Positions 4,700 to 41,124 of a stretch of DNA of 43,466 nucleotides are shown here, piece after piece. The DNA is from a virus, in IMG/VR virus record IMGVR_UViG_3300045988_091197. The stretch is one strand, 5' to 3'. The translations under genes were made by a program, and so were the position numbers. The notes under the pieces are model-generated. The model saw only the letters and a list, made by a program, of their open reading frames with translations, ran no database searches and was not told the origin of the DNA. The stretch's first letter is position 1. The number at the start of each line of letters is the position of its first letter.

Positions 4700-5779
4700 A
4701 TGAAGAAAATCAAATCTATCCTGTTTCCCATGCTGCTTATGAATATGCAGCTCTTTGCAACGCAGACCACGTTGCTCAACAGTACCGGCAACGACCTTTC
4801 GCCGGAAATGAAGACCTTCTATGACATGACGCTGCTCGACGAGGCGCAGGCACAGCTGGTTCACGACCAGTTCGGCCAGAAGCGCCCCATTCCCAAGAAC
4901 GGCGGCAAGACCATAGAATTCCGCAAGTTCAGTTCCCTCGCTAAGGCGCTGACTCCGCTCACTGAGGGCGTCACTCCGAACGGCAACAGCCTTGACGTGA
5001 CGACTATCACCGCGACTGTTAAGCAGTTCGGCGATTATATCGTCATGTCCGATGTCCTTGAACTGACCGCCCTTGACCCGATTGTTCTTGAGGCGACCAA
5101 GCTTCTGGGCAGACAGGGCGGCCTGACCCTTGACACTGTTGTCCGCAACATCCTGTGCGCAGGCACCAACGTGACCTACTGCCCGCAGATCGGCACCGGC
5201 GGCGCCGAAACCGAAGTGACGAGCCGCAGCGGGCTGAATACCACGTCTCAGCTCACCGTTGACGTTGTGCAGCAGGTTGTTGCCAAGCTCCGCGCGCAGA
5301 ATGCGCCCACCATCGACGGCGATTATGTCGCCATAATCCACCCGTACGTCGCATATGACCTGATGCGCGACCCCGAATGGATCGATGCGCACAAGTATGC
5401 ACAGCCTGACAACCTGTATACCGGCGAGATCGGCAAGATAGCCGGTGTGCGCTTCGTGCAGACTACCGAGGCAAAGATCTGGAATGACGAGACCTGCCCG
5501 GTAAAGACCGCGGCAGCAAGCGGCAATCCCGCCGTTTATTACAGCGTGTTCGCCACTCTGTTCATCGCCGACGGCGCGTACGGCACGACCGAGGTCGAGG
5601 GCGGCGGTATGCAGACCTTTGTCAAGCAGAAGGGCAGCGCCGGTACTGCCGACCCGCTCGATCAGCGCAGCTCCGTCGGCTGGAAAGCGCTCAAAACCGC
5701 AGAAATACTCATGCCGAACTATCTGGTTCGTGTTGAGTCTGTCTCCAAGCGTTTCAGCGGTACGGCGAAAGCCAACTGA
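4700..5779 (+). CDS. Major capsid protein (HK97-fold type) with N-terminal Prp-type propeptide (…MNMQLFA/TQT)
   Basis: 359 aa with an AAGGAG RBS, located after the scaffold gene. The QLFA motif is at 4748-4759. Confidence 0.85.
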   Translation: MKKIKSILFPMLLMNMQLFATQTTLLNSTGNDLSPEMKTFYDMTLLDEAQAQLVHDQFGQKRPIPKNGGKTIEFRKFSSLAKALTPLTEGVTPNGNSLDVTTITATVKQFGDYIVMSDVLELTALDPIVLEATKLLGRQGGLTLDTVVRNILCAGTNVTYCPQIGTGGAETEVTSRSGLNTTSQLTVDVVQQVVAKLRAQNAPTIDGDYVAIIHPYVAYDLMRDPEWIDAHKYAQPDNLYTGEIGKIAGVRFVQTTEAKIWNDETCPVKTAAASGNPAVYYSVFATLFIADGAYGTTEVEGGGMQTFVKQKGSAGTADPLDQRSSVGWKALKTAEILMPNYLVRVESVSKRFSGTAKAN

Positions 5780-18000: not shown

Positions 18001-21000
18001 ATAAAGGCGGACGGCGGAAGCCTTGACGACATGGATTTAACGCCGCGCGGGACGCTTATAGGCTATCTTGAAAACTGCTATCCCATTATCCAGTACGAGG
18101 AATACACGGACGAAAACGGTGCTGTAAGGTCGCGCCCGGTAACTGACAGCAAGGGGGAGCCGGTAATTGACAGAGCCGCGGTGAGAAAGCGCGACGCGCT
18201 TATCGAGGAGGTCAAGCAGATGGCCATCCCGGACGGCCCGCTTGAAATGCTGTTTAATGCGTTCGGCACGGATCAGGTTGCAGAGATAACCGGCAGAACG
18301 CGGCGCGTTGTGCCGCGCAAGCAGCCGGACGGCAGCATAAAAAGAGTTGAGGAGAGTCGCAGCAAGGCACACACGGCGGCGGACGTGCAGGCGTTTCAGG
18401 ACGGGGATAAGCGAATACTTGTATTCTCGGACGCCGGCGGCACGGGCAAGAGCTATCACGCGTCCAGAACTGCGAAAAACCAGCAGCAGCGCGTACATTA
18501 TGTATTGCAGCCCGGCTGGGTAGCGTCAAAAGCTGTGCAGGGCTTTGGCCGGACACACCGCAGCAATCAGAGCAGTGCACCTATCTATAAGCTCGTAACC
18601 ACAAACATCAAAGGGCAGAAGCGCTTTACATCGACGATTGCCCGCAGGCTCGACCAGCTCGGCGCGCTTACCAAAGGGCAGCGAGACACCGGCAGCGGAA
18701 TGTTCGGCGCAAAGGACAACCTTGAAACCGACCTCGCGCGGGACAGTCTGAGAGAATTTTACCGCCGACTCGGCAAAAACCAAATCGACGGCATTGACGG
18801 CATGGACACCTTGCAGCGGCTTGGACTAAAGAGCAAGTTCACGGATGAGTTCGGCGCGTTCAAGCTTGACGACTCAACGTCGCGAGATATAAGCACCTTC
18901 CTTAACCGCATACTTGCGCTTGAGGTAGACGAGCAGAACACGCTGTTCGATGCATTTATCAACATCTACGAGACGGAAATGGAAGCCGCGATTCAGGCCG
19001 GTACGCTTGACACCGGTATGGAGAATGTCAAGGCGGACAAAATCGAGATTGTCGACGACAAGGTTATCAAGGAGCAGGAGACAACCGGCGCGGCGACGCA
19101 CTATATTCAGGCGAAGATCTATACCAAGCCCAAAATCATATCCACGGTTGCGGCGGCGGAGGGGCTGCGCAGCGGCTTCATGGGGATATACAAGACCAAA
19201 AACGGAGATATCCGCGCAGTGTACCGCATTGCGGACAAAACAACGGAATGGGGCGAGGTACAAAAGCAATACAAGCTGCAATCTCCGAATGCCGCCAAAT
19301 CCTCCATATGGAAGGAGAGCAGCTTTGAAAAGAACGCTGAGCTGCTGCCAAAGGACGAATGGCAGACCGAATGGGACAAGGAGATAAAAAAAGTCCCCGA
19401 ATATAACGAGGACACTAAGCATATGCTCACCGGTACGCTGCTGCCGATATGGTACGCCCTCCCCGATGACGGCAACACAAAGGTGCAGCGGCTTGTTGCT
19501 GACGACGGCTCCACATATCTCGGCAGGGTAATAAGCCCTGACAAGATTGACGACGTTCTCAAGCGCTTCAATCTCAACCGTACGAAGGAGATTTTTACGG
19601 CTGAAAAGGTGATGGACTCGGCAATAAAGCGAGGGACGCGATTTGACCTGACATATTACAGGGCTCAACTGTTCAGAAGCCGTGTAAGCGGAGAATGGCG
19701 GCTTGAATATAAGCAGGGGCAGAACTCATGGTACGTCGCTCGGCAGTTCCCGGAGCTTATCCACGAGAAAATAAACTATCAAGACCGCTATTTCGTGCCT
19801 CTCAACGATGAGGGACGAGCAGTGCTTGACAAAATTCTCGAAGAAAACCCGGTAACAAATACGAGCGAGGGCAGCGACTCAGACGGCTATGTGCAGTATT
19901 CAAAGCGCGGCAGGGACGATTCCTCGGTCGATTCATACGACCCGGAAACGGCCAACGTGAAAGAGCAGATCGCGAACAGCAGTGCTGAGCTGAACAAGAT
20001 GACCGTCGCGGCGACCGTTAACGCGCCTGCAAACTTCACGAGCAAAGAAGCGGCAAGTAAATGGGCTATCGCTATGCTTGAGCACACGGGATTTCAGGTT
20101 GACCGGAAGAACTTCGGGAAAATCTTTTTCTCTCAAAAGGATATCAAAACAAGCGTTAGGTATGCTGACACGGCGGCAGAGAAAGCCGCTTTCGCGGCTC
20201 TGCCGGCTGTGCTGAAAAAGGGCATAGAAATAGGCAGACACAGTAACCACAAAGCGCGAGGCAAGGAAACGGTTACTTTTGCGGCACCGGTTATCCTAAA
20301 CGGTGTACGCGGTAACATGGGAGTGGTCGTTAATCTCAGGGGCAATCACTACTATGCGCACAGAATCGTGCTACCGGACGGCGGGATATTTGTTCTGTCA
20401 GAAAACGAAAATGATGCAGCACGAGAATTGCCCCGGGGAGTGACCATTTCTGGCTCTCTTGCCGACGCCACAAGTACTGCATCTGTAAATAGTATAGCAT
20501 CCGGCTTGAATTTTGACAAGGAAAATTTTGCAACAGAGGTTGACACGGAACTTTCAACACGCGCACCGGCGCTTTCAGACCGTGAGGTTCTGCAATATGC
20601 GGCTAAAAACATAGACGCAAGCACCCTCACACCGGCGCAGGCTGACGCGCTGAGAATATTCAAGGAGCGCGTTGACAGGCTGCAAGAGCTTCAGGAGCAG
20701 CGGCAGGAGCTGGGGCGTGAGTACCGCGAGCAGCAATTCAAACGACCGGTAGACCGCAACGCGGCGACGGTGACGAAAAACAGGATGGGAGTACTCGACG
20801 GCAAAATCCGGGCGCTCGAAAACAGCGTTGTTTCGCTTGAGGACAAAGATGTATTGCGTCAGGTGCTGAAAGAAGCGCGGCGGTTTGTTGAAAAACGCGA
20901 GCGGACGCAGGGCGCACTGAGGCTGAAAGAATACCGCGAAGCGCGCAACGAAAGCGCAAGCCTCAAGAAGTACCGCGCAAGGGTGCTCAAAGAGGCTGAA

Positions 21001-24000
21001 ACACTGCGGGACATGCTTATGAATCCAAGCAACAAAAACGTGCTGAAACGCGTACCCGGAGCGATACAGAAAACGGTAGCGGACTTTATAGGCGCGATAG
21101 ACTTCACCAGCAAACAGGCTTTGCGCGGCGGAGCGGCGACGCAGGCCGACCAGCGCATTATGTCACAGATGCGGGCGATGCGGGATGCAATCAAGGATAA
21201 CATTGACCTTCAAGGCGAATACTCAGGGTACGCCGACTTGCCTCCTGACTTTATGGATAGCTTCCAGAAGCAGATAGACCGGATGCAGGAGTTAGTAAAC
21301 GAGAGCAGCGGAGAGTATGTTATAAACAAGATGTCTGCCGCTGAACTGAGAGAGCTTGCGCACACGCTGCGAGATATACGCCGATATATTCAGGACATGA
21401 ACCGCTTCCACGAAAACGCCATGTTCCAACACGCTTACGATGCGGGTGAGGATACGATAGCCGACTTGGAGGCAAAGGGCAAGGCGCGGAGACTGCGCAA
21501 CAACGAGATATATAACGGGCTTGCGTGGAAGTATATGCGCCCCGTTTACGGCCTTGAACGTCTCGGAAGGGGCGGAAAGTCAATAAGCGACGAGTTCAGA
21601 AAAGGGCAGGCAAAGCAGGCATTCCTTGCAAAGCAGGTTATAGATTTCTCTGAAAAAGCTTATACCGCTAAGGAAGCGCAGGCGTGGAGCCGCGAAGTGA
21701 AAGCCGTACAGATAGGCGACTCGACCGTACACATGACGGCTGCGCAGGCGATGAGCTTTTATTGCCTTATGCGCAGGCCGCAGGCGAGGACTCATATCTT
21801 CGGGGACGGTATCCGCGTTGCCAACTTTGAAAACGGGAGGATGGTCTACCGCGACGAAGGGCACCGGCTGACGGTCGGAGAGGCAAACGCAATTATAAAC
21901 AGCCTGAGCGAGAGGCAAAAGGCCGTTGCGGATGAGCTGCAGAAGTTTATGTCCGAAGAGTGCGCCGAGTGGGGCAACTATGTCAGCCTTGCGCGCTTTG
22001 GGACAAAGCTCTTCGGCGAAGAAAACTATTTCCCGATAAACTCCGACGGGCGTTATTTGCAGGCCACGGCAGACGAAAGTCCAAGCAACGCAAGCCTTTA
22101 TGCGCTGCTGAATATGGGCTTTACCAAAGAGCTGAACGAAAAGGCGAGGAACCGCATAGTGCTGTATGACATTTTCGACGTGTTTGCAAACCACGCAGCG
22201 AGTATGACGCAGTACAGCAGCTTCGCTCTGCCGGTTCTCGATGCGCTTAAATGGTTCAACTACAAAAATGATGAAACATCGGTTCGTGACAAGATGGCGG
22301 CGGCTTACGGTGCGCCGACCGAGAGCAAGCCGGGAAGCGGGTCGAAGAGCTATGCCGAAAGCTTTGTGCTGAATTTGCTCAAACAGTATAACGGCACAGC
22401 GGCTCGCGGAGATGCATTTGATGCATGGGGAATAAAGGGATTGCACCTGTTTAACCGTGCACAGGTTGCTTTTAACGTGCGAGTTATCATACAACAGCCG
22501 ATGGCCATTACGCGCGCGGCGCAGATCATCTCGCCCACGAAGCTTGCGAAAGGACTATCCGTGTCAGCGACGCAGATGAAAACCCTTGCGGCAGAGATGG
22601 AGGCGCACAGCGGAATAGCGGCGTGGAAAGGACTCGGTTTTTATGACACGAACATCTCGCGCGGCCTTACGGCACTGATAAAGCACGATCAGAGCTTCGC
22701 CGGCAAAGTTACGGAAGCAGGCATGACAGGCGCGGAGCAGGCAGACCGCTTTACGTGGGCGGCTATGTGGTATGCCTGCAAGGACAGTGTGAAGCGCGGC
22801 GACTACAAGACCGAGGGCGAGTATTTTGATGCAGTAACGGAACTTTTCGAGGACGTCATATACAAAACTCAGGTTGTCGACAGCGTACTTACAAAGGCGG
22901 AATTTCTGAGAGCGCAGGGATTCTTCCCACGAATGATGGGCTCCTTCATGTCGGAGCCGAGCGCGACTGTATCCATGCTTATGGACACGTATATGCAGTA
23001 CACCGACGCGCTTCAAAGCGGCATGAGCAAAGGGGCAGCGTGGCAGAAGTACGGAGATACCATACGCAGGACTATAACGGTATATGCCATCGGGCAGGTG
23101 CTCATATCTGCGGTTCAGGCCGTGGCGGATGCATGGCGCGACGACGATGACTACCAGACATTCTGGGAGAAGTATCTCGAAGCACTCAAGGGGAACCTTG
23201 TTGATAATCTGCTTCCGTTCGGCAATATCCCGTATGTTTCAGAACTGTATGACCTTGCAAAGAACCTTTTATCAAAGTTTGGCGTGGACACATACGGCAG
23301 CGGCATTTCAAACGGATGGATGCAGTATGCGCAGTATCTTGAAAGAGCGACAGAAATCTTCGCGGATAAGATTCGTGGCAGCAATACGCGGTACACCACA
23401 TGGGGTGGCGTGTACAACCTGCTGCGCGCCGTGGCCGGCATGACCGGGTTGCCTTTGGCTACAGCCACACGCGAGGTCATCGACGTGTGGAACAACACCA
23501 TAGGCGCAGCAAACCCTGACAGGAAGATAAAGACCTATGATTCCGGCGCAAAGGCGAGTATTAAGTACGCATATCAGGACGGTTATCTGAGCTTCGACGA
23601 GGCGGTTGAAAAGCTCCGCGAGAAGGGCGTGGAAACCGACAAAAACAAGGCGTACTTAATGGTCAAGAGCTGGGATACGGGCGGAAAGTACAGCGAATTG
23701 ACGGCTGCGGCTGCATCCGGCGACCGGGCAGCGTTCAGAGCGGCGCTGCAGGAACTCGTAGAACACGGCGTTGCGGAGAAAGACGCTTACAATGCGGTGA
23801 GGAAGGATATCAAGGAACGGTATCTGGACGGAGACATCACCGAAGTGCAGGCAATAAGCGCGCTTACTGCGTTCGGTGACAAAGACCGCGACGAAGCGCA
23901 AGGCTATGTTCAGGGCTGGCAGTTCAGCCGGGATTACCCGCAGTATGACTGGACGGATGCTGAGATAACAACATACAGCACAGACATAAAGCGCACGGGG

Positions 24001-24213
24001 ATAAGCCCGGATGTATTCGACAGGTATCTCACAGAACTTGATAACTGCAAGGGAACCGACGATGACGGCGACGGCAAGACCGACAGCGGCAGCGTCAGGG
24101 CGCAGGCGATTGTTATGATAGATGCACTTCCGATAAGCGCGGCGCAGAAAGACGCGCTGTATCTTCTCAACTGGAAGGAAAGCACTCTGAGCAAGACGCC
24201 GTGGCACAGCTAA
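12025..24213 (+). CDS. Giant 4062-aa polyvalent protein with zincin-like HExxH, N6-adenine DNA methyltransferase and SNF2/strawberry-notch-type helicase modules plus a long C-terminal region (DarB-like, probably virion-packaged and ejected)
   Basis: Uninterrupted ORF with AGGAGG just upstream. HEFTH is at 14470-14484. MTase motif I VLEPSAGIGG is at 15790-15819 and motif IV NPPF at 15988-15999. Helicase motifs are GDGTGVGKG at 17029-17055, DEAH at 17353-17364 and QGFGRTHRSNQ at 18538-18570. Confidence 0.9.
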   Translation: MNSIDRLLAHVDEEEQKRSNAGETAERRGSTGTSDPIKDLLDHVAAVESGELPRYTSTDYSETSYQEPQREQVSFGERIKNFFKGSDNRRDESGLSGSQTQRFRDLQAQLNEIDRNSGYATTAETSDELEQQRRNIIRQLDELDEEAGREARTYSPSDRIDNVIKSWLNRTGAGYTNAAGSILDLGSSKRKSLRQQQEEADMARFAERNPEAAAEAQAAEERYRQSLRGARDSTYKAADKMQSSAERQLAKSEYGTSAAGSFAIDAAMTGADIITDAAFAKLTGITGLANMALRVYGSESQDARLSGDDAETAAAKGLKAATIEVITEKLAGPFELAYGKSLGRQAMGKTAGKIARVFDRLETNGVLKWVFDTAGEGAEEGLSDVLNIIADHVFNWDDGDMTILEEIASDKDDILYDMILGAFVGAFGATTSAIAEGEQGRRVKNIYGKEGAAALVDEGLLSGEGTKSRRLAERYNEKLQSGRELTGREMSQLIEANDMAFADESPENRGADASEPEQTDHVEKAISKIAKNDTEADLLREDFTLGEADAETYARGAEEAYNYGKLGVSMEDAVQNGSFINDLTEAQRDHAYKLGQQESSADTLTEEDAAQGAEADTADANAENVDAYAAKYGDEAPAVIASYNSGEVKGIGEFSTAFDAAYNMGRSGVPESELSASAALSYLSDAQRKTAFDMGRASASKAAAQAQTEVKSAAKPGKLNRKGVVKGEGVTLKELKSTFNDRQNTAYRLLSTFAEATGVDVVLYKTSAEPDGSFASEQGRFTWKDDTIYVDINSGLYSSKDVESLGKYTMMRTFAHEFTHFIEKWNPAQYNDFRSFVFGTLAGKGESVNDLIESKMSLDSSGKLDYEQASREVIADAMVDILPDSNIVQRLASEHESIYKKLLQKLRDFTARLKQYYKEITTRPGREAQALKEQVGEGTRYMQSIVDMWTNAAEGAVRSYKAAEGTEQRIENKAKPEATKLKEAPKQKPKTEQPKAKESAAETAEKAPPKENDELTRLRDRLDALRYTEVNGFGFAVTATAGKDGEAVYRARINRVASDPLHIEDAKAVYSEAFTSLEDAIESLVAVAENNNLLTPVEADKEATETKETVAQEEAPAKSDEKNREMESGTPSEKTAYRILTEYLAAGKKLTSKELYSICDETFNGTQAEGAYDRKAAYDAMELAVNRYLLTNAADLNGDTAEDARRGLERVQGILSLLPTQNVRTQEMEQFQQFSTPPNIAYLAAWAADINSSDLVLEPSAGIGGLAAFAKAWGAEVAVNELSERRLAVLKAMGFDHVFNENAEQIDNVLPESIKPTAVIMNPPFSSTAGRTATNKTSNAERHINQALARLNDGGRLVAILGRGMADKAYSKYWDKLRQDYNIRANISIDGENYKKYGTTFDVQLVVIDKTGAQGSAETVTGSYKDLAEIPNVLEGIRNDRSAETERDSAVAGVQEASPVEQGGEGTVRAPVDTADGGADAGVLELGSRPGSTGEPRSADIHGEVQRGIQDASAADGAAVQQQRADAADKKSGKRTDRGADRGEERNTARDAGGQLNIQRLGAGGLETESARGQVTEKGRSNKRSDDGVYADYVAPELTVKGSKPHPAVLVESSAMSAVFMPKATYTPHLPENVIKNNLSTEQLVSVTYAGQAHEQTLPNGERKGFFIGDGTGVGKGREISGIILDNFEQGRDKAVWISMNDKLFADAQRDWADTTGRGKDEIHLQGKTKLQNKIDFGSGILFTTYPTLRTEKGQLSRINQIVEWLGKDFDGVIAFDEAHNMGNLLGSSGKFGRTKGSAMAAAAVKLQSLLPKARVVYVSATAATDVQGLAFASRLGLWGRGTAFTDVNDFVSKIQSAGLAAMELVVRDMKAMGVYVSRSISYNGVSYDTVQHDLDPMQTEIYNTMSRAWQKTMGSVEESLKSTGGVHNSNAKQLAIGQYYSAMQRFYNQVLTSMSMPSVIADMKKELAAGKSCVLQIVNTNQAEADRQIASIKADGGSLDDMDLTPRGTLIGYLENCYPIIQYEEYTDENGAVRSRPVTDSKGEPVIDRAAVRKRDALIEEVKQMAIPDGPLEMLFNAFGTDQVAEITGRTRRVVPRKQPDGSIKRVEESRSKAHTAADVQAFQDGDKRILVFSDAGGTGKSYHASRTAKNQQQRVHYVLQPGWVASKAVQGFGRTHRSNQSSAPIYKLVTTNIKGQKRFTSTIARRLDQLGALTKGQRDTGSGMFGAKDNLETDLARDSLREFYRRLGKNQIDGIDGMDTLQRLGLKSKFTDEFGAFKLDDSTSRDISTFLNRILALEVDEQNTLFDAFINIYETEMEAAIQAGTLDTGMENVKADKIEIVDDKVIKEQETTGAATHYIQAKIYTKPKIISTVAAAEGLRSGFMGIYKTKNGDIRAVYRIADKTTEWGEVQKQYKLQSPNAAKSSIWKESSFEKNAELLPKDEWQTEWDKEIKKVPEYNEDTKHMLTGTLLPIWYALPDDGNTKVQRLVADDGSTYLGRVISPDKIDDVLKRFNLNRTKEIFTAEKVMDSAIKRGTRFDLTYYRAQLFRSRVSGEWRLEYKQGQNSWYVARQFPELIHEKINYQDRYFVPLNDEGRAVLDKILEENPVTNTSEGSDSDGYVQYSKRGRDDSSVDSYDPETANVKEQIANSSAELNKMTVAATVNAPANFTSKEAASKWAIAMLEHTGFQVDRKNFGKIFFSQKDIKTSVRYADTAAEKAAFAALPAVLKKGIEIGRHSNHKARGKETVTFAAPVILNGVRGNMGVVVNLRGNHYYAHRIVLPDGGIFVLSENENDAARELPRGVTISGSLADATSTASVNSIASGLNFDKENFATEVDTELSTRAPALSDREVLQYAAKNIDASTLTPAQADALRIFKERVDRLQELQEQRQELGREYREQQFKRPVDRNAATVTKNRMGVLDGKIRALENSVVSLEDKDVLRQVLKEARRFVEKRERTQGALRLKEYREARNESASLKKYRARVLKEAETLRDMLMNPSNKNVLKRVPGAIQKTVADFIGAIDFTSKQALRGGAATQADQRIMSQMRAMRDAIKDNIDLQGEYSGYADLPPDFMDSFQKQIDRMQELVNESSGEYVINKMSAAELRELAHTLRDIRRYIQDMNRFHENAMFQHAYDAGEDTIADLEAKGKARRLRNNEIYNGLAWKYMRPVYGLERLGRGGKSISDEFRKGQAKQAFLAKQVIDFSEKAYTAKEAQAWSREVKAVQIGDSTVHMTAAQAMSFYCLMRRPQARTHIFGDGIRVANFENGRMVYRDEGHRLTVGEANAIINSLSERQKAVADELQKFMSEECAEWGNYVSLARFGTKLFGEENYFPINSDGRYLQATADESPSNASLYALLNMGFTKELNEKARNRIVLYDIFDVFANHAASMTQYSSFALPVLDALKWFNYKNDETSVRDKMAAAYGAPTESKPGSGSKSYAESFVLNLLKQYNGTAARGDAFDAWGIKGLHLFNRAQVAFNVRVIIQQPMAITRAAQIISPTKLAKGLSVSATQMKTLAAEMEAHSGIAAWKGLGFYDTNISRGLTALIKHDQSFAGKVTEAGMTGAEQADRFTWAAMWYACKDSVKRGDYKTEGEYFDAVTELFEDVIYKTQVVDSVLTKAEFLRAQGFFPRMMGSFMSEPSATVSMLMDTYMQYTDALQSGMSKGAAWQKYGDTIRRTITVYAIGQVLISAVQAVADAWRDDDDYQTFWEKYLEALKGNLVDNLLPFGNIPYVSELYDLAKNLLSKFGVDTYGSGISNGWMQYAQYLERATEIFADKIRGSNTRYTTWGGVYNLLRAVAGMTGLPLATATREVIDVWNNTIGAANPDRKIKTYDSGAKASIKYAYQDGYLSFDEAVEKLREKGVETDKNKAYLMVKSWDTGGKYSELTAAAASGDRAAFRAALQELVEHGVAEKDAYNAVRKDIKERYLDGDITEVQAISALTAFGDKDRDEAQGYVQGWQFSRDYPQYDWTDAEITTYSTDIKRTGISPDVFDRYLTELDNCKGTDDDGDGKTDSGSVRAQAIVMIDALPISAAQKDALYLLNWKESTLSKTPWHS
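16340..16750 (+). CDS. Candidate overprinted gene (136 aa) in the +1 frame of the giant gene's methylase-helicase linker
   Basis: GGAGGG at 16326-16331, an 8-nt spacer, then ATG 16340. An in-frame TAA lies at 16334-16336. The product has globular, helix-like composition. About 108 of 136 codons end in G/C (hand count), while the host frame here uses mostly A/T-ending codons. Confidence 0.55.
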   Translation: MTEVQRLNATPLSQGFKKLLPWNRAERELYVLQWIRQTVELMQGYWNSGADPEVLANLEALTFTEKYSEAYRMLLPPTEPLYSNSELMRQIKRVESAQTEEQIEEKSVTLLEMLVDNSTFSDSELADLKPSLHEDR

Positions 24214-28787: not shown

Positions 28788-29906
28788 TCATTCCTTGCCG
28801 CCTTTGTCAAGGACATTGATAGCAGCGTGGGCACTCTGCATATCGGGATGAATATAGCGCTGGGTGGTCGTAAACTTGGTATGCCGCATGATCTCCTGTA
28901 TCACGCTGGGCGCAGTCTTGGCGAGCGCCAGCGCCGTCGCCGTGGTATGGCGGCACGAGTACGGCGGCAGATCGCGCACCTTTGCCCTGGCGAGGGCGGC
29001 GTGATACTCGGTATAAAAATTATCCGAGTTCATGCCGACGATGCGCCCCTTCTTGCTGCTCACGTTGGCGAGGATATCCTGCACGAGCGGTTCGAGCCAG
29101 TCGGGATAAATCAGCGGTGTTGATTTGCGCTTCTTGGTTTTCAGGCCGCAGCCGATGATCTCGTGCGTATCGGTGTGTATCATGTCGGCCGTGCAGCGCA
29201 GCAGCTCACCGGGCATCATGCCGCTGTATATCATCAGCAGCGGGAAGCGCATAAACAAGTCACCGTTGTCGTAGGCCGTCCACAACGCATTTATCTCATC
29301 CTCTGCAAACGGCTTTTGCTCTGTTTCAGCAAGCGGCGGCAGTTCGACAAACTCTGCGAGATTTGTTCGCGCCTGCCCTTCGGCGACGGCGCGCTTGTAT
29401 AGCTTGCGAAGCATGGTTTTCATGTCCTTCGCGGGATAGTACGTATCAGTTTGCGAATCCACGCAGCTTTGCAGATTATCTATTGTAAGCTCCGCTACGG
29501 GTACATTTTTGATGGAGTCTAGCCGACGCCATGCGATATCATGCGCACACTGCTTGGAGCTGCCGAGCTTATCGTATGCGCCGCTCTTTTCCCACCATCT
29601 GTGGTAGTCTCTGAGCGTAGGCCGGTACACCTGCTTCGGCGCGGTTTCTGTGGGATTGGCCGCAAAGGCGAGCGCGGCGGTTTTAGATGGGAAGCCTCCC
29701 TTCGTTCCGCGCCGCTGGTGCAGGCTGCCGGACGCATCAACAAACGTGTCAATTGTCCATTGCGCAGTCCACGTCCTGCCACGCCGGTACGCCGTGCCCT
29801 GCCCGTTCCCTCGCCCCCTACGCGGCTGCGCGTTTTGCCGCGCCCCGCAGAACATGCAAAATGCGCTTATATCCGGTATTTCTTTTCTGCACTTACGGCA
29901 TATCAT
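28788..29906 (-). CDS. int: Tyrosine integrase with an N-terminal CxxC...CxxC zinc ribbon
   Basis: The gene starts MICRKCRKEIPDISAFCMFCG and overlaps the upstream gene by ATGA. Catalytic contexts ...YSCRHTTAT... and ...HTKFTTTQRYIH are present. It is adjacent to the tRNA-fragment attP. Confidence 0.85.
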   Translation of the reverse strand: MICRKCRKEIPDISAFCMFCGARQNAQPRRGRGNGQGTAYRRGRTWTAQWTIDTFVDASGSLHQRRGTKGGFPSKTAALAFAANPTETAPKQVYRPTLRDYHRWWEKSGAYDKLGSSKQCAHDIAWRRLDSIKNVPVAELTIDNLQSCVDSQTDTYYPAKDMKTMLRKLYKRAVAEGQARTNLAEFVELPPLAETEQKPFAEDEINALWTAYDNGDLFMRFPLLMIYSGMMPGELLRCTADMIHTDTHEIIGCGLKTKKRKSTPLIYPDWLEPLVQDILANVSSKKGRIVGMNSDNFYTEYHAALARAKVRDLPPYSCRHTTATALALAKTAPSVIQEIMRHTKFTTTQRYIHPDMQSAHAAINVLDKGGKE

Positions 29907-30451
29907 TTTCTTAACATCCTCAGGGCGTACACCATGACACACACGGCGGCAACGACTATCAAACCAAAAATAACGGCAAGGGCGCTTGACCTGGCGGACT
30001 GAAAAAGCCCCGCCGTTACAAGCTGGGCATCCCACACCATATACGAAATTAAACACACGAGCAGCAGGGCGCAGACAGCTAAAAGCGCGTATACGACAGG
30101 CCTGCGGCTTGCAAGCTGCGCTTTGAGCATGGCGTTGACCTCTTCGAGCCGCTTGACGTCTCCGGCCTGACGGACATTATCCATTTCAAGCTCATGCACG
30201 GCGGCGAGGTCTGACGCGGGGCAAAGCCCGCACAGTTCATCCAGAGACAAGCCGAGGGTATCACATATCGCTGCCTGCTCAAATAGCTTTGGGTTTGGCG
30301 CTGTATCGGCGCTCTGGGTGGCTATAGCAGAGTATGATACGCCGGACTGCTCCGACAATTCGGCGAGGGAAAGGCGTCGGTCATTACGCGCGTCGGTTAC
30401 TTTACGATTATAGCTGTCAAAGTACGGGATAAGACGCTGGTACGGGGTCAT
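29903..30451 (-). CDS. XRE-family HTH protein with two C-terminal transmembrane helices, translationally coupled to int
   Basis: GGGAG RBS upstream of ATG 30451. HTH sequence LSLAELSEQSGVSYSAIATQ. TM segments VVYALLAVCALLLVCLISYMVW and ALAVIFGLIVVAAVCVMVYAL. Confidence 0.75.
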   Translation of the reverse strand: MTPYQRLIPYFDSYNRKVTDARNDRRLSLAELSEQSGVSYSAIATQSADTAPNPKLFEQAAICDTLGLSLDELCGLCPASDLAAVHELEMDNVRQAGDVKRLEEVNAMLKAQLASRRPVVYALLAVCALLLVCLISYMVWDAQLVTAGLFQSARSSALAVIFGLIVVAAVCVMVYALRMLRK

Positions 30452-31979: not shown

Positions 31980-32019
31980 AACAAGCCCGATACGGAAATC
32001 ACTCCGTATCGGGCTTGTT
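31980..32019. terminator. Bidirectional terminator, perfect 16-bp stem
   Basis: aacaagcccgatacgg (8-nt loop) ccgtatcgggcttgtt, with T-rich flanks on both strands. It overlaps the last codons of the repressor gene. Confidence 0.75.
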
Positions 32020-32382
32020 TAGTTTATCGGCAAGTCTTCGGAACACTGCGGAGAGCTCCTTCCACTCTTCGACAGTGGTCTCGGCCATAAATTCAATGAG
32101 CAGCTGCTCAAGGTCTGAGCGCCGCCCGTCCGAAAGCTCGGAAAGATAAGCGTCTATGGCATCACGGCGCGACTTCTCCGCGAAGGGCTTTCCCACGCCG
32201 GTACGCAGCCACACCTCATCTACATTATATACTCGGCAGATATCCGCTATTGTGCGGTCGCTGGGGTCGCGCTGGCCTATTTCCATCATGGCTATATAGT
32301 TGCGAGACAAACCAAGAGCGGCGGCGAACGCTGATTGCGTTAGACCAGCCGTCTGGCGGACTTGTTTTATACGCTCGTTCAT
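31999..32382 (-). CDS. CI-like repressor (XRE HTH)
   Basis: ACAGGAGGTGATAAT precedes ATG 32382. HTH sequence LTQSAFAAALGLSRNYIAMMEIGQR. 127 aa, divergent from the early operon. Confidence 0.8.
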   Translation of the reverse strand: MNERIKQVRQTAGLTQSAFAAALGLSRNYIAMMEIGQRDPSDRTIADICRVYNVDEVWLRTGVGKPFAEKSRRDAIDAYLSELSDGRRSDLEQLLIEFMAETTVEEWKELSAVFRRLADKLNKPDTE

Positions 32383-32406
32383 ATTATCACCTCCTGTTGC
32401 GCTTAT

Positions 32407-32435
32407 ATAATAAACCAGTTTGCTAACGTTGTCAA
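32407..32435 (-). promoter_or_regulatory. Leftward (repressor) promoter: TTGACA, 17 nt, TATTAT
   Basis: The -35 is the reverse complement of 32430-32435 and the -10 is the reverse complement of 32407-32412. It shares the 10-bp motif TTGACAACGT with the rightward promoter. Confidence 0.55.
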
Positions 32436-32465
32436 TAAAAATTTCAGAAAGATGTAAAATAACTG

Positions 32466-32494
32466 TTGACAACGTGACGCAAGTGTGCTATTGT
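32466..32494 (+). promoter_or_regulatory. Rightward (early) promoter: TTGACA, 17 nt, TATTGT
   Basis: -35 at 32466-32471 and -10 at 32489-32494. ACGTTGTCAA (32426-32435) and TTGACAACGT (32466-32475) form a perfect inverted repeat. Confidence 0.55.
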
Positions 32495-32544: not shown

Positions 32545-32910
32545 ATGAAAGCAGTCAAGAAACCGTTTGTCGGTCAGTTGGTACAGGTTCCCGCATTTGA
32601 ATTTGCCCCGATGCGTTCTGGTCGGAACGGTTGGATTTTCAGGGTTGGCGTTATTGAAAAGCTGTACATTTCCAAGAGCGGGAGAAAATGCGCAAAGGTG
32701 CGCTATTGCACCAGACGCGCCGGACGGTATCAGCTTCTTCCTTGCACCGAGTATTCCAAAGGCTTTGTTATCGAAAATGTATTCCAGTGGGACAATCTGG
32801 CACTTGTGCAAAGCACTTATTCTGATTTAAAAGCTGTAGAGGACAGCGGTGAGCCGGTTTGCTGGGACGAAGATACCGCGTTTCTGCTCCAAAACGGATA
32901 TATCCACTAA
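32545..32910 (+). CDS. First early gene, in the position of cro but with no recognisable HTH; function unknown
   Basis: GAGAGGAG RBS upstream of ATG 32545; 121 aa. Confidence 0.65.
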   Translation: MKAVKKPFVGQLVQVPAFEFAPMRSGRNGWIFRVGVIEKLYISKSGRKCAKVRYCTRRAGRYQLLPCTEYSKGFVIENVFQWDNLALVQSTYSDLKAVEDSGEPVCWDEDTAFLLQNGYIH

Positions 32911-32934
32911 AAAACCGGGGCTTATCACATAAGC

Positions 32935-33305
32935 TGTGCGCATGGCGCGGTAGGGTGGGCGGCAGAGAAAGCGAGCGGGGCTGTAACCTCCGCAGGCTTC
33001 CTCTGCACAGGCTCCCAATCGGCCGCAGGCGCTCAATACGGCTCAATTTACAGCCGTCCCGCGGGCGAATTGTGCGGGGTGGGCTGAGGGGCAGCGTCAA
33101 CCAATGAGCGCATCCTGTTACAGCAGGGGCTTAGGCCGATTCCGTTCTTTCAGTGTGCGAGCTTCGCGGGCTTTACTCTCCCGCGAACTGAGAACGAGTC
33201 ACCGGGAGCAACAGGAAGGGCGACATTACGGAAGAAATAATCTCTCCCATAAGCATCACCTCCTTTCACTCCGGAGCAAGCCCATCCTATCACGCCATGC
33301 GCACA
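32935..33305 (+). ncRNA. Candidate structured RNA or inverted-repeat-bounded element (about 371 nt) with no credible ORF
   Basis: 32935-32960 pairs with 33280-33305: 23 Watson-Crick pairs, 2 G-U pairs that are valid only for plus-strand RNA, and 1 mismatch. Several internal hairpins are present, for example 32962-33006, 33039-33056 and 33163-33187. Confidence 0.4.
33173..33250 (-). CDS. 25-codon mini-ORF (MGEIISSVMSPFLLLPVTRSQFAGE) with an extended Shine-Dalgarno sequence
   Basis: The minus strand reads TGAAAGGAGGTGAT, an 8-nt spacer, then ATG 33250. A candidate promoter and an upstream terminator lie on the same strand. Confidence 0.35.
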   Translation of the reverse strand: MGEIISSVMSPFLLLPVTRSQFAGE

Positions 33306-33312
33306 GAGTCAA
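33284..33312 (-). promoter_or_regulatory. Candidate minus-strand promoter TTGACT, 17 nt, TAGGAT upstream of the mini-ORF
   Basis: The -35 is the reverse complement of 33307-33312 and the -10 is the reverse complement of 33284-33289. Confidence 0.35.
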
Positions 33313-33314
33313 AC

Positions 33315-33338
33315 AAAAAACGGGGCTTATGCGCCCCG
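33315..33338 (-). terminator. Minus-strand terminator-like hairpin (CGGGGC/GCCCCG plus T6)
   Basis: The plus strand reads aaaaaa cggggc ttatgc gccccg. A related copy, aaaaaaccggggcttat, lies at 32909-32925. Confidence 0.45.
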
Positions 33339-33405
33339 CCTTAATGCAGCCGAGGACGGTCACAAGCCCGTGTGAAATGCAGAGTGAGGACAAGGAGGTG
33401 AAACA

Positions 33406-33552
33406 ATGAGCGAGCAGGAGAAAAAGGCGGCGAAGGAGCTGCTGGACGACCTGAAGAAGATCCCGGCGGACGGCGCGGATTATATGCGCGGGTATATGCG
33501 GGGCAGGCTGGACGGCATCAAGAACCGCAAGGACAAGGAGGACGAGGAATGA
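33406..33552 (+). CDS. Small acidic/basic hypothetical protein (48 aa)
   Basis: AAGGAGGTG RBS. Coupled by an ATGA overlap to the next gene. Translated by hand. Confidence 0.6.
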   Translation: MSEQEKKAAKELLDDLKKIPADGADYMRGYMRGRLDGIKNRKDKEDEE

Positions 33553-33770
33553 CACTTGACGACATCGAGGCGATGACGGCGGCGACGATAAGCCCGGCGC
33601 AGGCGGCAAGCGTGATCGGCTGCAACGAGCAGGCGCTGCGCATACAGGCGAGGGAGCGCCCCGAATGGTTAGGGTTCCCGGTTATCCGCATCAACAACCA
33701 GATAAAGATACCCCGCGAGGCGTTTTTGAGATACATGGGGCGGGGCGAGAGGGGGACTGAGCGATGCTGA
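33549..33770 (+). CDS. Excisionase-type / MerR-like HTH DNA-binding protein
   Basis: The sequence ISPAQAASVIGCNEQALRIQARE...IKIPREAFLRYM follows the typical Xis-family HTH pattern. Confidence 0.55.
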   Translation: MTLDDIEAMTAATISPAQAASVIGCNEQALRIQARERPEWLGFPVIRINNQIKIPREAFLRYMGRGERGTERC

Positions 33771-39567: not shown

Positions 39568-40253
39568 TACATGTTGGCGACATAACAAAGCTTAACGGCG
39601 CAAAGCTTGAGCCTGTCTGGTGCATCACAGGCGGCTCACCGTGCCAGGATTTATCCATCGCCGGGAAACGCGCCGGTTTGGCGGGAGCGCGAAGCGGCCT
39701 GCTTATGGAGCAGGTGCGCATCGTAAAAGAAATGAGGGAGGCGGACAAAAGGAATGGACGGACAGGTGACATGGTTAGACCTCGGTATCTCGTGTGGGAA
39801 AACGTGGTCGGAGCCTTTAGCAGCAACAAAGGAAAAGACTTCGCAGCCGTGCTCGAAGAGATCATCAAAATCGTCGAACCGGAAGCCCCCGGTATTGAAG
39901 TGCCTGAAAAGGGCTGGCCTACCTGGGGAGGGTATCACGATGAAGTGGGAGGACGATGGAGCGTGGTGTGGCGAACTCACGACGCGCAATACTGGGGAGT
40001 GCCCCAACGCCGTCGTCGTATCTCGGTTGTCGCAGATTTTGGAGGAGACACCGCATCCGAAATACAATTTGACCGCAAAAGCATGTCAGGGGATATTACG
40101 GCGAGCGGAGCGTCGGGGGAAGGATCTGCCGAAGCTGCTGAAGCAGGTTTTAATCCAGCAGTCGCAAGGAGCCTCACCGCAAGAGCGGACGGAAGCCCCT
40201 GCGCCGACAGAGACCCCAACATCGTATGCAGTCCGCATCAGGGGGGGCTGTGA
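39564..40253 (+). CDS. C5-cytosine DNA methyltransferase, part A (motifs IV, VI and VIII only)
   Basis: GGSPCQ has its PCQ at 39639-47. ENV is at 39798-39806 and QRRRR at 40005-40019. No FxGxG motif I is present. The gene stops at 40251 immediately after a G7 run. Confidence 0.75.
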   Translation: MIHVGDITKLNGAKLEPVWCITGGSPCQDLSIAGKRAGLAGARSGLLMEQVRIVKEMREADKRNGRTGDMVRPRYLVWENVVGAFSSNKGKDFAAVLEEIIKIVEPEAPGIEVPEKGWPTWGGYHDEVGGRWSVVWRTHDAQYWGVPQRRRRISVVADFGGDTASEIQFDRKSMSGDITASGASGEGSAEAAEAGFNPAVARSLTARADGSPCADRDPNIVCSPHQGGL

Positions 40254-41124
40254 CGGCGGAGGAAAAGGCGCGTTAGTGCAGGCAGAGAAAAGCGGAACAC
40301 TGGGCTGCGGCAATGACCAGACGATATTCTGCCTGCAAGGCGATGGCATCGACAGAGCCGACACTGCCGGATGTAACGGTAAAGGCTGGCGGGAAAATAC
40401 GTGCTATACGTTGAATACCATAGACCGACCGGCAGTGTGCGCCGGGTTCAAGCTGGGCAACAGCGAACAGGCGCGGAGCATAGGCTATCAGGAGGAACTG
40501 TCTCCTACACTGAACGCCGAGTGCGGCGGGAATAAGCCCGCAGTGGTGGCGCTGGACATGACACACGCCTGTGACGTCATCCGCGAGTGCGGGCAAATCG
40601 TGCCCAGTCTCCAAGCGCGTATGGGCACCGGTGGCAATCAAGTTCCGCTGACATACCAGATGAACGGGTTTGGAGATTACCGCGCCGCCGAGGTTGCAAG
40701 CAGTTGTAAGCAACGGGACTTTAAGGACAGCACAGACCTTGTTATCACACACATGGTGGTGCGCCGCCTGACGCCGATGGAGTGCGAACGGCTGCAAGGG
40801 TTTCCCGACCGCTGGACTGACATCGGCGAGTGGACGGACGAAAAGGGAAAGAAGCACAAGGACGCGGACAGCCCACGGTACAAGGCGCTGGGCAACTCCA
40901 TCGCCCTTCCCTTCTGGGACTGGATGCTGCGGCGCATGGCGCGGTATCTGCCCGAACACGCTACTCTCGGCTCGCTCTTTGACGGCATAGGAGGTTTTCC
41001 GTTGGTCTGGCAGGAGACACACGGCGATTATACGGCGCGTTGGGCATCGGAGATTGAGGAGTTCCCGATAGCGGTGACAAAGCTTCGTTTCCCTGAACCT
41101 GAAACAAAGGAGAAACTGCAATGA
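39940..41124 (+). CDS. C5-cytosine DNA methyltransferase, part B (target-recognition region, motifs IX and X, then motifs I and II at the C-terminus); a different frame that overlaps part A
   Basis: GGAGGG lies 7-8 nt before ATG 39940. RRLTPMECERLQGFP is at 40762-40806, GNS at 40891-40899 and FDGIGG at 40978-40995. The ORF-track start at 39754 gives junk-like sequence up to 39940. The true start, or a frameshift join with part A, is uncertain. Confidence 0.6.
   Translation: MKWEDDGAWCGELTTRNTGECPNAVVVSRLSQILEETPHPKYNLTAKACQGILRRAERRGKDLPKLLKQVLIQQSQGASPQERTEAPAPTETPTSYAVRIRGGCDGGGKGALVQAEKSGTLGCGNDQTIFCLQGDGIDRADTAGCNGKGWRENTCYTLNTIDRPAVCAGFKLGNSEQARSIGYQEELSPTLNAECGGNKPAVVALDMTHACDVIRECGQIVPSLQARMGTGGNQVPLTYQMNGFGDYRAAEVASSCKQRDFKDSTDLVITHMVVRRLTPMECERLQGFPDRWTDIGEWTDEKGKKHKDADSPRYKALGNSIALPFWDWMLRRMARYLPEHATLGSLFDGIGGFPLVWQETHGDYTARWASEIEEFPIAVTKLRFPEPETKEKLQ

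Follow-up and report, generated by a model that had tools for sequence, protein, structure and literature searches.

Twister ribozymes of type P1 (Rfam RF03160) are built from the essential stems P1, P2 and P4 and a double pseudoknot (T1 and T2) between loops L1/L2 and L4, whereas stem P3 is optional and is present in 78% of twisters (PMC5408937). The mRNAs of type I toxins (for example hok, AapA1 and Fst, and prophage-borne systems of Firmicutes) carry a short ORF for a small hydrophobic membrane-active peptide within a highly structured RNA that has its own promoter and terminator, a sequestered Shine-Dalgarno sequence and start codon, and transcription from the opposite strand; such mRNAs usually close 5′ to 3′ on themselves. 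Large ornate RNAs (ROOL and GOLLD; also OLE, raiA and HEARO) are found in prophages and bacteria, and phage early transcripts contain intercistronic processing sites (the RNase III sites of T7) and leader RNAs such as λ nut and HK022 put.

The locus described here lies in a 43,466 nt stretch of viral DNA (IMG/VR record IMGVR_UViG_3300045988_091197, "the window"), where a gap of about 0.5 kb (32,911–33,405) separates the first early gene of a gut phage from the rest of its early operon. The gap holds three separable modules: a strongly folded cassette of about 375 bp ("e1"), a G+C-rich hairpin, and a predicted type-P1 twister ribozyme. The cassette belongs to a previously undescribed family with two paralogous types, e1 and the diverged e2, which share one multi-helix fold (P1 to P10 plus a candidate loop-loop contact). 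Like the ornate RNAs it is large, multi-helical, supported by covariation, phage-borne and narrowly distributed, but it is smaller (about 330–375 nt), carries coding-type signals on one strand, and occurs as tandem paralogs next to a ribozyme. Like the T7 sites it lies in the early transcript between cistrons, where a long double-stranded stem and a cleavage element would split the polycistronic RNA; here, however, cleavage would be by a self-cleaving ribozyme, the structured part is far larger than nut or put, and the element is dispensable in near-identical phages. The comparison with type I toxin mRNAs is taken up below.

The structured cassette and its relatives

The features of the region are collected in Table 1; related loci from human-gut phage contigs carry L numbers (L002, L005 and so on), and e1-B is a subtype of e1.

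Table 1. Features of the early-operon gap and its flanks (window positions)
Positions	Strand	Feature	Remarks
32466..32494	+	PR-like early promoter	TTGACA-17-TGnTATTGT; faces away from the HTH repressor gene at 31999-32472 (-; Pfam HTH_3); predicted to drive plus-strand read-through of the whole region
32910..32925	.	Left copy of direct repeat AAAAACCGGGGCTTAT	A-run plus 5′ half of a hairpin, truncated in the window; in L005/L006 a complete minus-strand intrinsic terminator (CGGGGCATATGCCCCG followed by a T-run)
32934..33306		Cassette e1	About 375 bp
32934..32960	+	P1 5′ arm	Left arm of the 27-bp closing stem; contexts to its left diverge at or within 9 nt of it in four different ways, so it marks the left end of the cassette
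32962..33006	.	P2 hairpin (GCAGAGAAAGC / GCUUCCUCUGC)	Tip P2a at 32975-32993; both paralogs keep an A x C opposition on the plus strand, a G.U on the minus strand; loop CUGUAA (32981-32986) is complementary to the P7 loop
33011..33016	.	P3 5′ strand GCUCCC	Pairs with 33204-33209; near-invariant across e1 and e2 (outer pair G-C becomes A x C in e1-B)
33017..33026	.	P4 plus P5 5′ strands	Pair with 33129-33141; six of the eight P4 pairs change on both sides between e1 and e2
33028..33112	.	P6 (33028-33037 with 33103-33112)	Three different sequence versions, all of which pair; interior (33038-33102) variable, 15 nt shorter in e1-B and deleted in L067
33113..33128	.	P7 hairpin	Loop UUACAG (33118-33123) is a candidate 6-bp kissing partner of the P2a loop; in e2 the corresponding loops offer UCGU with ACGA
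33143..33196	.	P8 three-part hairpin	Top stem at 33164-33186 carries a compensatory G-C to A-U change
33173..33250	-	25-codon ORF, MGEIISSVMSPFLLLPVTRSQFAGE*	Open in all 22 unique e1 copies; no protein-family match; peptide not conserved in e2 beyond about residue 12
33204..33209	.	P3 3′ strand GGGAGC
33216..33265	.	P9 (33216-20 with 33261-65)	Encloses the P10 hairpin (33225-33250); on the minus strand this domain is predicted to sequester the Shine-Dalgarno sequence and the start codon
33255..33267	-	Shine-Dalgarno sequence GAAAGGAGGTGAT	13-nt perfect match; GGAGG core 8 nt upstream of the ATG; reads AUCACCUCCUUUC on the plus strand, like the 3′ end of Firmicute 16S rRNA
33280..33306	+	P1 3′ arm	Right arm of the closing stem
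33284..33312	-	Sigma-70-like promoter	TTGACT-17-(TGa)TAGGAT; predicted start near 33277; two of the three non-Watson-Crick positions of P1 create the extended -10 TG and the A at -10 position 5; invariant in 45 copies
33315..33330	.	Right copy of the direct repeat	A-run plus 5′ half of the hairpin at 33321-33338
33317..33342	-	Intrinsic-terminator-like hairpin with T-run	On the plus strand the same G+C-rich hairpin (33321-33338) sits directly 5′ of twister stem P1
33338..33390	+	Type-P1 twister ribozyme lacking the optional P3 stem	Predicted cut between U33342 and A33343
33392..33408	+	RBS AAGGAGGTGA and ATG (33406)	Of the 48-aa first gene of the downstream early block; relatives carry e2 inserted exactly within this RBS

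An earlier note, made from the sequence alone, had described the gap as non-coding, highly structured sequence closed by a 26-bp stem, with several inner helices and bracketing direct repeats, and had suggested that it is part of the plus-strand early transcript. The structure it described is real and was confirmed throughout. The arms of the inverted repeat are 27 nt long, 89% complementary and 319 nt apart; the best gapless inverted-repeat score is 15, whereas 100 dinucleotide shuffles of 32,700–33,600 gave 9.2 ± 1.0 (maximum 13). The imperfect positions are two G.U pairs and one C.A, which would itself be a G.U on the other strand. All of the inner helices listed were recovered, and four of them (32,962–33,006 with its tip, 33,029–35/33,105–11, 33,143–49/33,190–96 and 33,163–87) carry compensatory changes in relatives; 33,039–33,056 and 33,057–62/33,074–79 lie in a variable insert that half of the relatives lack. 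The direct repeats are 16 nt long and 94% identical; the hairpin to which they belong is complete on the right side, and in L005/L006 it is complete on the left side too. Both strands fold far better than shuffles (z −5.2 for the plus and −8.6 for the minus strand). On the other hand, the note's statement that the gap has no credible ORF and no RBS is wrong, as the minus strand has both, and no self-cleaving ribozyme had been recognized there, only a hammerhead core having been checked for.

The fold is backed by compensatory changes in about 45 related copies. In a 10-sequence e1/e2 alignment 95.6% of cells pair, against 36–48% when partners are slid by 1–3 columns, and 30 of 63 pairs change on both sides, against 1–7 when slid. 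A helix-by-helix table has 35 of 119 pairs with double changes, including the different versions of P6. All homologs are closely related, being two paralog types plus subtypes, so this covariation rests on few independent lineages. There is no Rfam 15 match at gathering score in the whole window; at E ≤ 10 the cassette gave only chance microRNA, snoRNA and lncRNA hits (no RNase P, tmRNA, 6S, SRP, group I/II intron, ROOL, GOLLD, OLE, HEARO or riboswitch), e2 matched nothing at E ≤ 1, and ARAGORN found no tRNA or tmRNA. BLASTN against 50,697 phage records matched only the twister/RBS part, and the first 12 kb of the window has no near match. A pattern scan with TTCCTCTGCAC..CTCCC found 28 viral loci, of which 19 were chance hits, and a 20-base pattern found only the same nine viral loci; a metagenome scan added nine true loci, and no member more distant than e1 is from e2 was found. 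A scan of 185,579 GTDB representative genomes gave 13 pattern hits, all chance matches with no nhmmer similarity. Full-text literature searches for related RNAs, and a sequence-string search of the supplements of the human-microbiome RNA catalogue (PMC8040213) covering the 200 of its 408 files that were searchable, found nothing.

Cassettes, twister and protein genes swap or are deleted independently at this one phage locus, where every copy sits. In many contigs e2 lies in tandem directly after the twister, and relatives show e1 only, e2 only, twister only, twister plus e2, neither, and deletion remnants. Near-identical phages lack the element or keep only remnants of it, so it is accessory. 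In L072/L076 a plus-strand ORF replaces e1 between the P1 remnant and a hairpin plus twister.

The twister was identified at 49.7 bits (E 6e-10), below the gathering score of 67.2 bits, and the shortfall comes from the deleted P3 stem. In an alignment of seven phage copies P2, P4, T1 and T2 are 100% paired and P1 is 75% paired (94% over all five), P1 and P2 show changes on both sides, and the middle pair of T1 is A-U in six copies and C-G in Roseburia phage Shimadzu, a compensatory change. The conserved loop nucleotides are present and the predicted U|A cleavage step adjoins P1. The hairpin abutting P1 on its 5′ side may be the optional P0 stem. The ribozyme sits as a boundary element between cassettes of a phage early operon, 1 nt before an RBS.

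Signals on the two strands

The earlier note's strand argument, that G-U pairs in the closing stem favor a plus-strand RNA, fails. Counts of G.U against A.C positions on strand-symmetric pair sets are about equal, 13 and 16 in e1, 14 and 19 in e2, and 5 and 5 at pairs predicted on both strands; the helix table itself gave 18 and 9, but it is biased by plus-strand folding. The minus strand has lower MFE in five of five copies and a lower consensus energy, which mildly favors it, whereas unpaired positions are somewhat A-rich on the plus strand, which mildly favors that one. No test clearly favored the plus strand, and the case warns against assigning strand from a few G.U pairs.

The minus strand carries a terminator, a promoter, a Shine-Dalgarno sequence and an ORF, the first three being consensus matches only, without expression data. 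In the 2-kb region of L002 the only four promoter-like hits are PR, PRM and one at the right end of each of e1 and e2, whereas shuffles give 0.8. L006 shows terminator, promoter, about 350 nt, then terminator, although the left terminator is degenerate in the window itself. The Shine-Dalgarno sequence, ATG and ORF are intact in all e1 copies and an equivalent set is present in e2; the Shine-Dalgarno core is 97–98% paired (unpaired probability 0.02–0.03) in four predicted minus-strand transcripts. The peptide, however, is short, and its hydrophobic run of about 13–16 residues is interrupted by prolines, with no convincing transmembrane stretch. Residues 2–8 differ between e1 subtypes, and e2 shifts frame after about residue 12, its 38-aa peptide being Arg-rich from there; the e1 peptide may not be the functional product. 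Neither has a Pfam or NCBIfam hit. Several third-position and stop-to-stop changes are seen in the ORF, but they are too few to count as a coding signal and are confounded with helix compensation. An e2 allele in at least three contigs has five C-to-U changes that abolish the minus-strand Shine-Dalgarno sequence and two minus-strand helices, yet keep plus-strand pairing through G.U.

P1 exists in both paralogs (27 bp and 10 bp) with different sequences, and because the predicted minus-strand starts lie inside the right arms it can only form in plus-strand RNA. Positions 33,256–33,265 are a perfect 10-nt complement of the RBS at 33,392–33,401, but a cis anti-Shine-Dalgarno role was rejected as the main explanation, since the same bases form P9, the e2 equivalent does not match its RBS, and the twister would separate the two partners. 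A search for antisense targets elsewhere in the window found no complementary match of 12 nt or more.

Possible roles of the cassette

The earlier interpretation is partly supported: the element is a conserved, highly structured one without a known RNA-family match between the first early gene and the rest of the early operon, but it is probably not the simple plus-strand regulatory RNA proposed, which would leave the minus-strand signals unexplained. The reading preferred here, tentatively and at somewhat less than even confidence, is that the cassette is an autonomous gene on the minus strand, nested antisense in the early operon. It would have an upstream insulating terminator, a promoter built into the right stem arm and improved by the imperfections of P1, a short leader, a very strong Shine-Dalgarno sequence and a 25-codon ORF both locked inside a long hairpin, a conserved structured tail of about 240 nt and, in some relatives, its own terminator; it would be made when the early promoter is repressed. 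The conserved A x C in P2, a G.U on the minus strand, fits this view. During lytic growth the early promoter would transcribe through the cassette on the plus strand, and only that RNA contains both arms of the 27-bp stem, which would close it into one domain. The twister would then leave the cassette RNA ending in the hairpin with a cyclic phosphate, and would free the downstream mRNA with a 5′-hydroxyl 49 nt before its RBS. The analysis establishes the fold with its covariation, the modular swapping, the twister core with its pseudoknots and the sequence signals on both strands, whereas the strand whose RNA is functional, translation of the ORF, self-cleavage and any biological role, toxicity included, are inferences.

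This layout resembles the mRNA of a type I toxin or another structured small-ORF RNA in its short ORF within about 350 nt of structured RNA with its own predicted promoter and terminator, its predicted sequestered ribosome-binding site, its coverage by transcription from the opposite strand, its tandem paralogs and its carriage on a prophage. It differs in that the peptide is not conserved between paralogs and in that the long closing stem can only form in the antisense (plus) transcript. No promoter-like site was found on the plus strand inside the cassette, so that only read-through from the early promoter would supply antisense RNA.

A stable plus-strand non-coding RNA remains a live rival, although a less likely one. 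In this view e1, and e2 in relatives, would be transcribed from the early promoter, e1 would be released at its 3′ end by the twister, and the RNA would act in trans or in cis during early lytic development, for example as a takeover, decoy or anti-defence RNA, the minus-strand signals being incidental or serving only neighboring minus-strand cargo genes. The need of P1 for both arms, the wobble positions of P1 itself (about 5 to 1 for the plus strand), the hairpin and twister that follow every e1 copy, the position of e2 about 40 nt downstream of the early promoter in L009/L018, the e2 allele described above, the A-rich unpaired residues, and the slot of e1 in L072/L076, which is that of a plus-strand gene in a "payload, hairpin, twister" cassette, are all in its favor. 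It leaves unexplained two well-placed minus-strand promoters, the flanking T-run terminators and the perfect Shine-Dalgarno sequence with an ATG in both paralogs; the overall wobble counts are balanced, the minus strand folds better, and the twister is not specific to e1, as it also occurs without it (L072, L076, Roseburia phage Shimadzu and MT835475).

More speculative, and unlikely on present evidence though not excluded, is that e1 and e2 are a new class of phage-borne "RNA moron", in which the conserved fold of about 350 nt, not the poorly conserved peptide, would be the effector, perhaps an RNA-only immunity, anti-defence or catalytic RNA. It would be expressed from its own promoter in the lysogen and opposed in the lytic cycle by the antisense early transcript, which the twister then detaches from the coding mRNA; this would also give the bacterial twister a concrete biological job.

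Still less likely is a minus-strand cis-regulatory leader, in which the antisense RNA of e1 would be a long structured 5′ leader with a leader ORF that controls whatever lies downstream on that strand, in many relatives a cargo gene (101 aa or 138 aa) and in the window read-through towards the repressor gene, in the manner of the λ PRE transcript. In at least nine loci a minus-strand gene starts about 20 nt beyond the left arm of e1, with the same 5′ UTR and RBS although the genes differ; no other promoter for those genes was found, the e1 right-end promoter points at them, and in the deletion variants L062/L063 the e2-tail promoter sits directly upstream of that gene. However, e1 also occurs with a good terminator and no minus-strand gene on its left (L005/L006), e2 occurs alone next to the early promoter, no attenuator-like alternative structures were demonstrated, and the window has no cargo gene.

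A MITE-like or other DNA-level element, including a structure acting in single-stranded DNA, is not supported, for although inverted repeats bound the unit, left-hand contexts change exactly at the left arm, 16-nt direct repeats flank it and balanced G.U and A.C usage would suit DNA, no copy was found in the representative genomes scanned, the direct repeats are hairpin halves lying 8–9 nt outside the inverted repeat, rather than evident target duplications, and are absent in other left-hand contexts, and extensive compensatory change in internal helices is not expected of a MITE; a retron is likewise not supported, as no reverse-transcriptase domain was found among the 20 window proteins scanned.

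Occurrence of the modules

Large covariation-supported RNAs with no family assignment are rare, and this one sits in a temperate-phage lineage that is widespread in human-gut metagenomes; its neighboring 73-aa and 48-aa genes are each indexed in more than 1,000 blocks of the metagenome collection. Phages with e1 only, e2 only, both, remnants or none are otherwise similar, so that nature has already made the comparisons an experiment would need. The natural role of bacterial twister ribozymes is still unclear, and a role in mRNA processing is directly testable here, since in this phage and in Roseburia phage Shimadzu and MT835475 the same "hairpin, mini-twister" module sits at boundaries between early-gene cassettes, followed by an RBS here and at one MT835475 copy.

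The 0.5-kb interval and its predicted twister ribozyme

The window is a temperate phage, with a terminase, a portal, a tyrosine integrase and an HTH repressor, and its divergent early operon on the plus strand carries an exonuclease, a replication initiator and a DnaC-like loader. Between the first early gene and the next lie about 0.5 kb with no ORF of 30 codons that looks real. The structured element that the earlier note described in this interval is real: its 27-nt inverted repeat is 89% complementary and scores far above shuffled sequence (15 against 9.2 +/- 1.0, maximum 13), the direct repeats are present, and both strands fold much better than shuffles. Rfam at gathering score finds nothing in the whole window, and ARAGORN finds no tRNA or tmRNA. 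Feature positions are collected in the table below, in which L numbers are our handles for the phage sequences compared.

Positions of features in the window and in the sequences compared with it
Sequence	Feature	Coordinates	Strand	Remark
Window	Giant ORF	12025-24213	+	4,062 codons
Window	15-nt direct copy of an e1 segment	20172-20186		GGCGGCAGAGAAAGC, from the P1/P2 junction; within the giant ORF
Window	Tyrosine integrase gene	28788-30056	-
Window	HTH repressor gene	31999-32472	-
Window	First early gene	32545-32910	+
Window	Left direct repeat	32910-32925
Window	Block shared with six IMG/VR contigs	32925-33396		84-97% identity
Window	Left arm of P1	32934-32960		27-nt inverted repeat
Window	Helix of the earlier note	32962-33006		part of the e1 fold
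Window	Helix of the earlier note	33029-35/33105-11		part of the e1 fold
Window	Helix of the earlier note	33143-49/33190-96		part of the e1 fold
Window	Helix of the earlier note	33163-87		part of the e1 fold
Window	Short ORF	33250-33173	-	ATG at 33250; 25 codons
Window	Shine-Dalgarno sequence	33267-33255	-	GAAAGGAGGTGAT, 13 nt
Window	Palindrome	33269-33276		CUCCGGAG, 8 nt
Window	Predicted transcription start	near 33277	-
Window	Right arm of P1	33280-33306
Window	Promoter-like sequence	33312-33284	-	TTGACT-17-TAGGAT, extended -10 TG
Window	Right direct repeat	33315-33330
Window	Hairpin with T-run	33342-33317	-
Window	Type-P1 twister	33338-33390	+	predicted cleavage between 33342 and 33343
Window	ATG of the next early gene	33406	+
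Window	C-5 cytosine methylase gene	39754-41124
Window	15-nt direct copy of an e1 segment	40932-40946		GCGCATGGCGCGGTA, from the P1 left arm; within the methylase gene
L029 (Roseburia phage Shimadzu, LR596903)	Hairpin and mini twister	2497-2548
L030 (MT835475)	Hairpin and mini twister, first copy	2497-2548
L030 (MT835475)	Hairpin and mini twister, second copy	2909-2967
L072	ORF in the e1 slot	1840-2090	+
L076	ORF in the e1 slot	2510-2765	+
L002	Cargo gene	about 9730-10035	-
L001 (reverse-complemented orientation)	Cargo gene	about 5060-5490	-
L062	e2 tail in a deletion variant	2760-2850
L063	e2 tail and boundary hairpin in a deletion variant	2255-2335
L088	Gene fragment with ToxN_toxin domain	1-254	-

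With permissive thresholds, the right end of the interval matches the Rfam type-P1 twister model over its full length (49.7 bits, E 6e-10), a score that falls below the 67.2-bit gathering score only because stem P3 is missing. Stems P1, P2 and P4 of twisters are essential, whereas P0, P3 and P5 are optional, and the cut lies between a U and a conserved A next to P1 (PMC5408937). The only BLASTN matches of the region in 50,697 phage records are to this part, in Roseburia phage Shimadzu and in MT835475. Rfam finds similar twisters there, two without P3 and one (the second MT835475 copy) with a P3 insertion, each after a hairpin and in intergenic or unannotated sequence; their scores of 54-61 bits are all below the gathering score. 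In an alignment of seven copies, P2, P4 and the pseudoknots T1 and T2 pair in 100% of cells, P1 and P2 show changes on both sides, and the middle pair of T1 is A-U in this lineage and C-G in Shimadzu. We therefore accept this sequence as a twister, with its cleavage activity predicted from sequence alone. The same module of a hairpin plus mini twister lies downstream of annotated or apparent genes in these unrelated gut phages, and at the first MT835475 copy an RBS and ATG follow within 20 nt, which suggests that twisters are general boundary or processing elements between phage gene cassettes. The twister class is already known, and the present example is a new instance of it in an informative context.

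Two paralogous cassettes, their predicted fold and their modularity

The exact left arm of the inverted repeat occurs in six IMG/VR contigs, in which the shared block listed in the table behaves as one unit. Four of them carry a second noncoding block of about 375 nt inserted exactly within the downstream RBS. This block, here called e2, aligns with the core of the window's element (e1) at roughly 55-60% identity, and the shared motifs include GAGAAA...UUCCUCUGCAC..GCUCCC, GCUUA, GGGAGC and CAU.A..GAA. Further scans and look-ups brought about 43 e1 copies (22 unique) and 32 e2 copies (14 unique), all from human-gut assemblies, whereas a scan of representatives of 185,579 species gave only chance hits. 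The e1/e2 fold matches no described family among those that could be tested, although it cannot be excluded that it is listed anonymously in large catalogues of candidate RNAs.

Consensus folds made separately for each type agree on one architecture: a closing stem P1 (27 bp in e1 and 10 bp in e2), hairpin P2, a long-range helix P3 (GCUCCC/GGGAGC) that encloses P4, P5, P6 with a variable interior, P7 and P8, and a P9-P10 domain. The four helices of the earlier note listed in the table are all part of this fold. On a MAFFT alignment of ten sequences, the RNAalifold structure is paired in 95.6% of cells, against 36-48% when partners are slid, and 30 of 63 pairs change on both sides, against 1-7 when slid. 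In a register-by-register table, 35 of 119 pairs show double changes, including six of the eight P4 pairs, and P6 occurs in three different sequence versions. The sequences fall into only about three lineages (e1-A, e1-B and e2), however, so this covariation rests on few independent events. The P2a loop CUGUAA and the P7 loop UUACAG are perfectly complementary in e1, and the corresponding e2 loops offer UCGU with ACGA; this is a candidate kissing contact, strong in e1 and weak in e2. Both paralogs also have an 8-nt palindrome (CCGGCCGG in e2) just inside the right arm of P1. In e1 it duplicates both strands of P3 and could allow an alternative pairing or dimerization, and it would also lie at the very 5′ end of the predicted minus-strand transcript.

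The locus is a mosaic hot spot, in which relatives with near-identical flanks show every combination: e1 only; e2 only (L009 and L018, about 40 nt after the early promoter); both; twister plus e2 (L072); twister only (L076); neither (L068 and L069); e1 with its P6 interior deleted (L067); and deletion remnants (L062 and L063). In L072 and L076 a plus-strand ORF (MYK(H/L)PTKEE...; 67 or 81 aa as called) with its own 3′ hairpin replaces e1, between a 20-nt remnant of the left arm and the twister; it has no family match. Thus, the cassettes are accessory, the twister belongs to the boundary rather than to e1, and the direct repeats seen in the earlier note are copies of the boundary hairpin. The natural deletion variants L062 and L063 keep only the e2 tail, and in L063 the boundary hairpin as well; the tail carries the minus-strand promoter-like sequence TTGCCA-17-TAGAAT, which the deletions place directly upstream of a 101-aa minus-strand gene. 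This gene is one of two unrelated minus-strand cargo genes (found in L001, L002, L070, L074 and L075) that start about 20 nt beyond the left arm of e1 and use the identical 5′ UTR and RBS; one is 101 aa (MNRYQC...) with a C-terminal hydrophobic segment, and the other is 138 aa (MDAQYEIL...) with a weak DUF4364 hit.

Signals on the two strands and their interpretation

The earlier note used the G·U pairs of the closing stem to favor a plus-strand RNA, but this argument does not hold. The one "mismatch" in P1 is C·A, which is a G·U on the other strand. Pair sets derived symmetrically from both strands give 13 G·U against 16 A·C positions in e1 and 14 against 19 in e2, and at pairs predicted on both strands the within-type polymorphisms split 5 against 5. 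The minus strand has the lower MFE in five of five copies and the lower consensus energies, while unpaired bases are mildly A-rich on the plus strand. Structure alone therefore does not decide the strand, and the note's interpretation of the element is only partly supported.

Reading right to left, the minus strand carries a hairpin with a T-run, a promoter-like sequence with a predicted start, a Shine-Dalgarno sequence, an 8-nt spacer after its GGAGG core, and an ATG that opens a 25-codon ORF, which is open in all 22 unique e1 copies. e2 has the equivalent set: the promoter-like sequence in its tail, GAAAGGGGGTG, an ATG and 38 codons. In the 2-kb region of L002 the only four promoter-like hits of the scan are PR, PRM and these two, where shuffles give 0.8, and L006 shows the full series of terminator, promoter, about 350 nt, then terminator. 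In predicted minus-strand transcripts the Shine-Dalgarno core is 97-98% paired. Two of the three non-Watson-Crick positions of P1 are exactly those that create the TG and the A of the -10 box. The peptide, however, looks weak as a functional product, as it has no family match, its hydrophobic run is short, residues 2-8 differ between e1 subtypes, and e2 shifts frame after about residue 12.

Other observations point to the plus strand. The predicted minus-strand starts fall inside the right arms of P1, and P1, which is present in both paralogs with different sequences, can only form in the plus-strand read-through RNA. Its own wobble positions favor the plus strand about 5 to 1. An e2 allele in at least three contigs carries five C-to-U changes that keep plus-strand pairing through G·U, but destroy the minus-strand Shine-Dalgarno sequence and two minus-strand helices.

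A plus-strand-only reading leaves the coherent minus-strand signals unexplained, and a minus-strand-only reading leaves P1 unexplained. The reading that fits most of the evidence, which we hold only tentatively, is that a minus-strand structured small-ORF RNA gene is nested antisense in the early operon, and that its plus-strand read-through copy would be closed by P1 and separated from the downstream mRNA by the twister. Such a gene would have the architecture of a type I toxin mRNA, but membership in that class is not established. The shared fold, the mosaic arrangement, the twister core and the signals on both strands come directly from the sequences analyzed, whereas which strand's RNA is functional, translation of the ORF, self-cleavage and any biological role are inferred. 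The position in a variable early slot and the element's dispensability suggest an accessory role such as immunity, exclusion, maintenance or counter-defense, by inference only. A plus-strand noncoding RNA is the next possibility, though a doubtful one, and a minus-strand leader for downstream genes is less likely still. A MITE or other DNA-level element is very unlikely.

Elsewhere in the related phages, L088 carries next to the immunity region a gene fragment with the Pfam domain ToxN_toxin, the type III toxin-antitoxin toxin. In the window itself, two 15-nt exact direct copies of e1 segments lie inside coding regions, one in the C-5 cytosine methylase gene and one in the giant ORF, where about 0.03 such matches are expected by chance for each. 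This giant ORF alone takes up more than a quarter of the phage genome.
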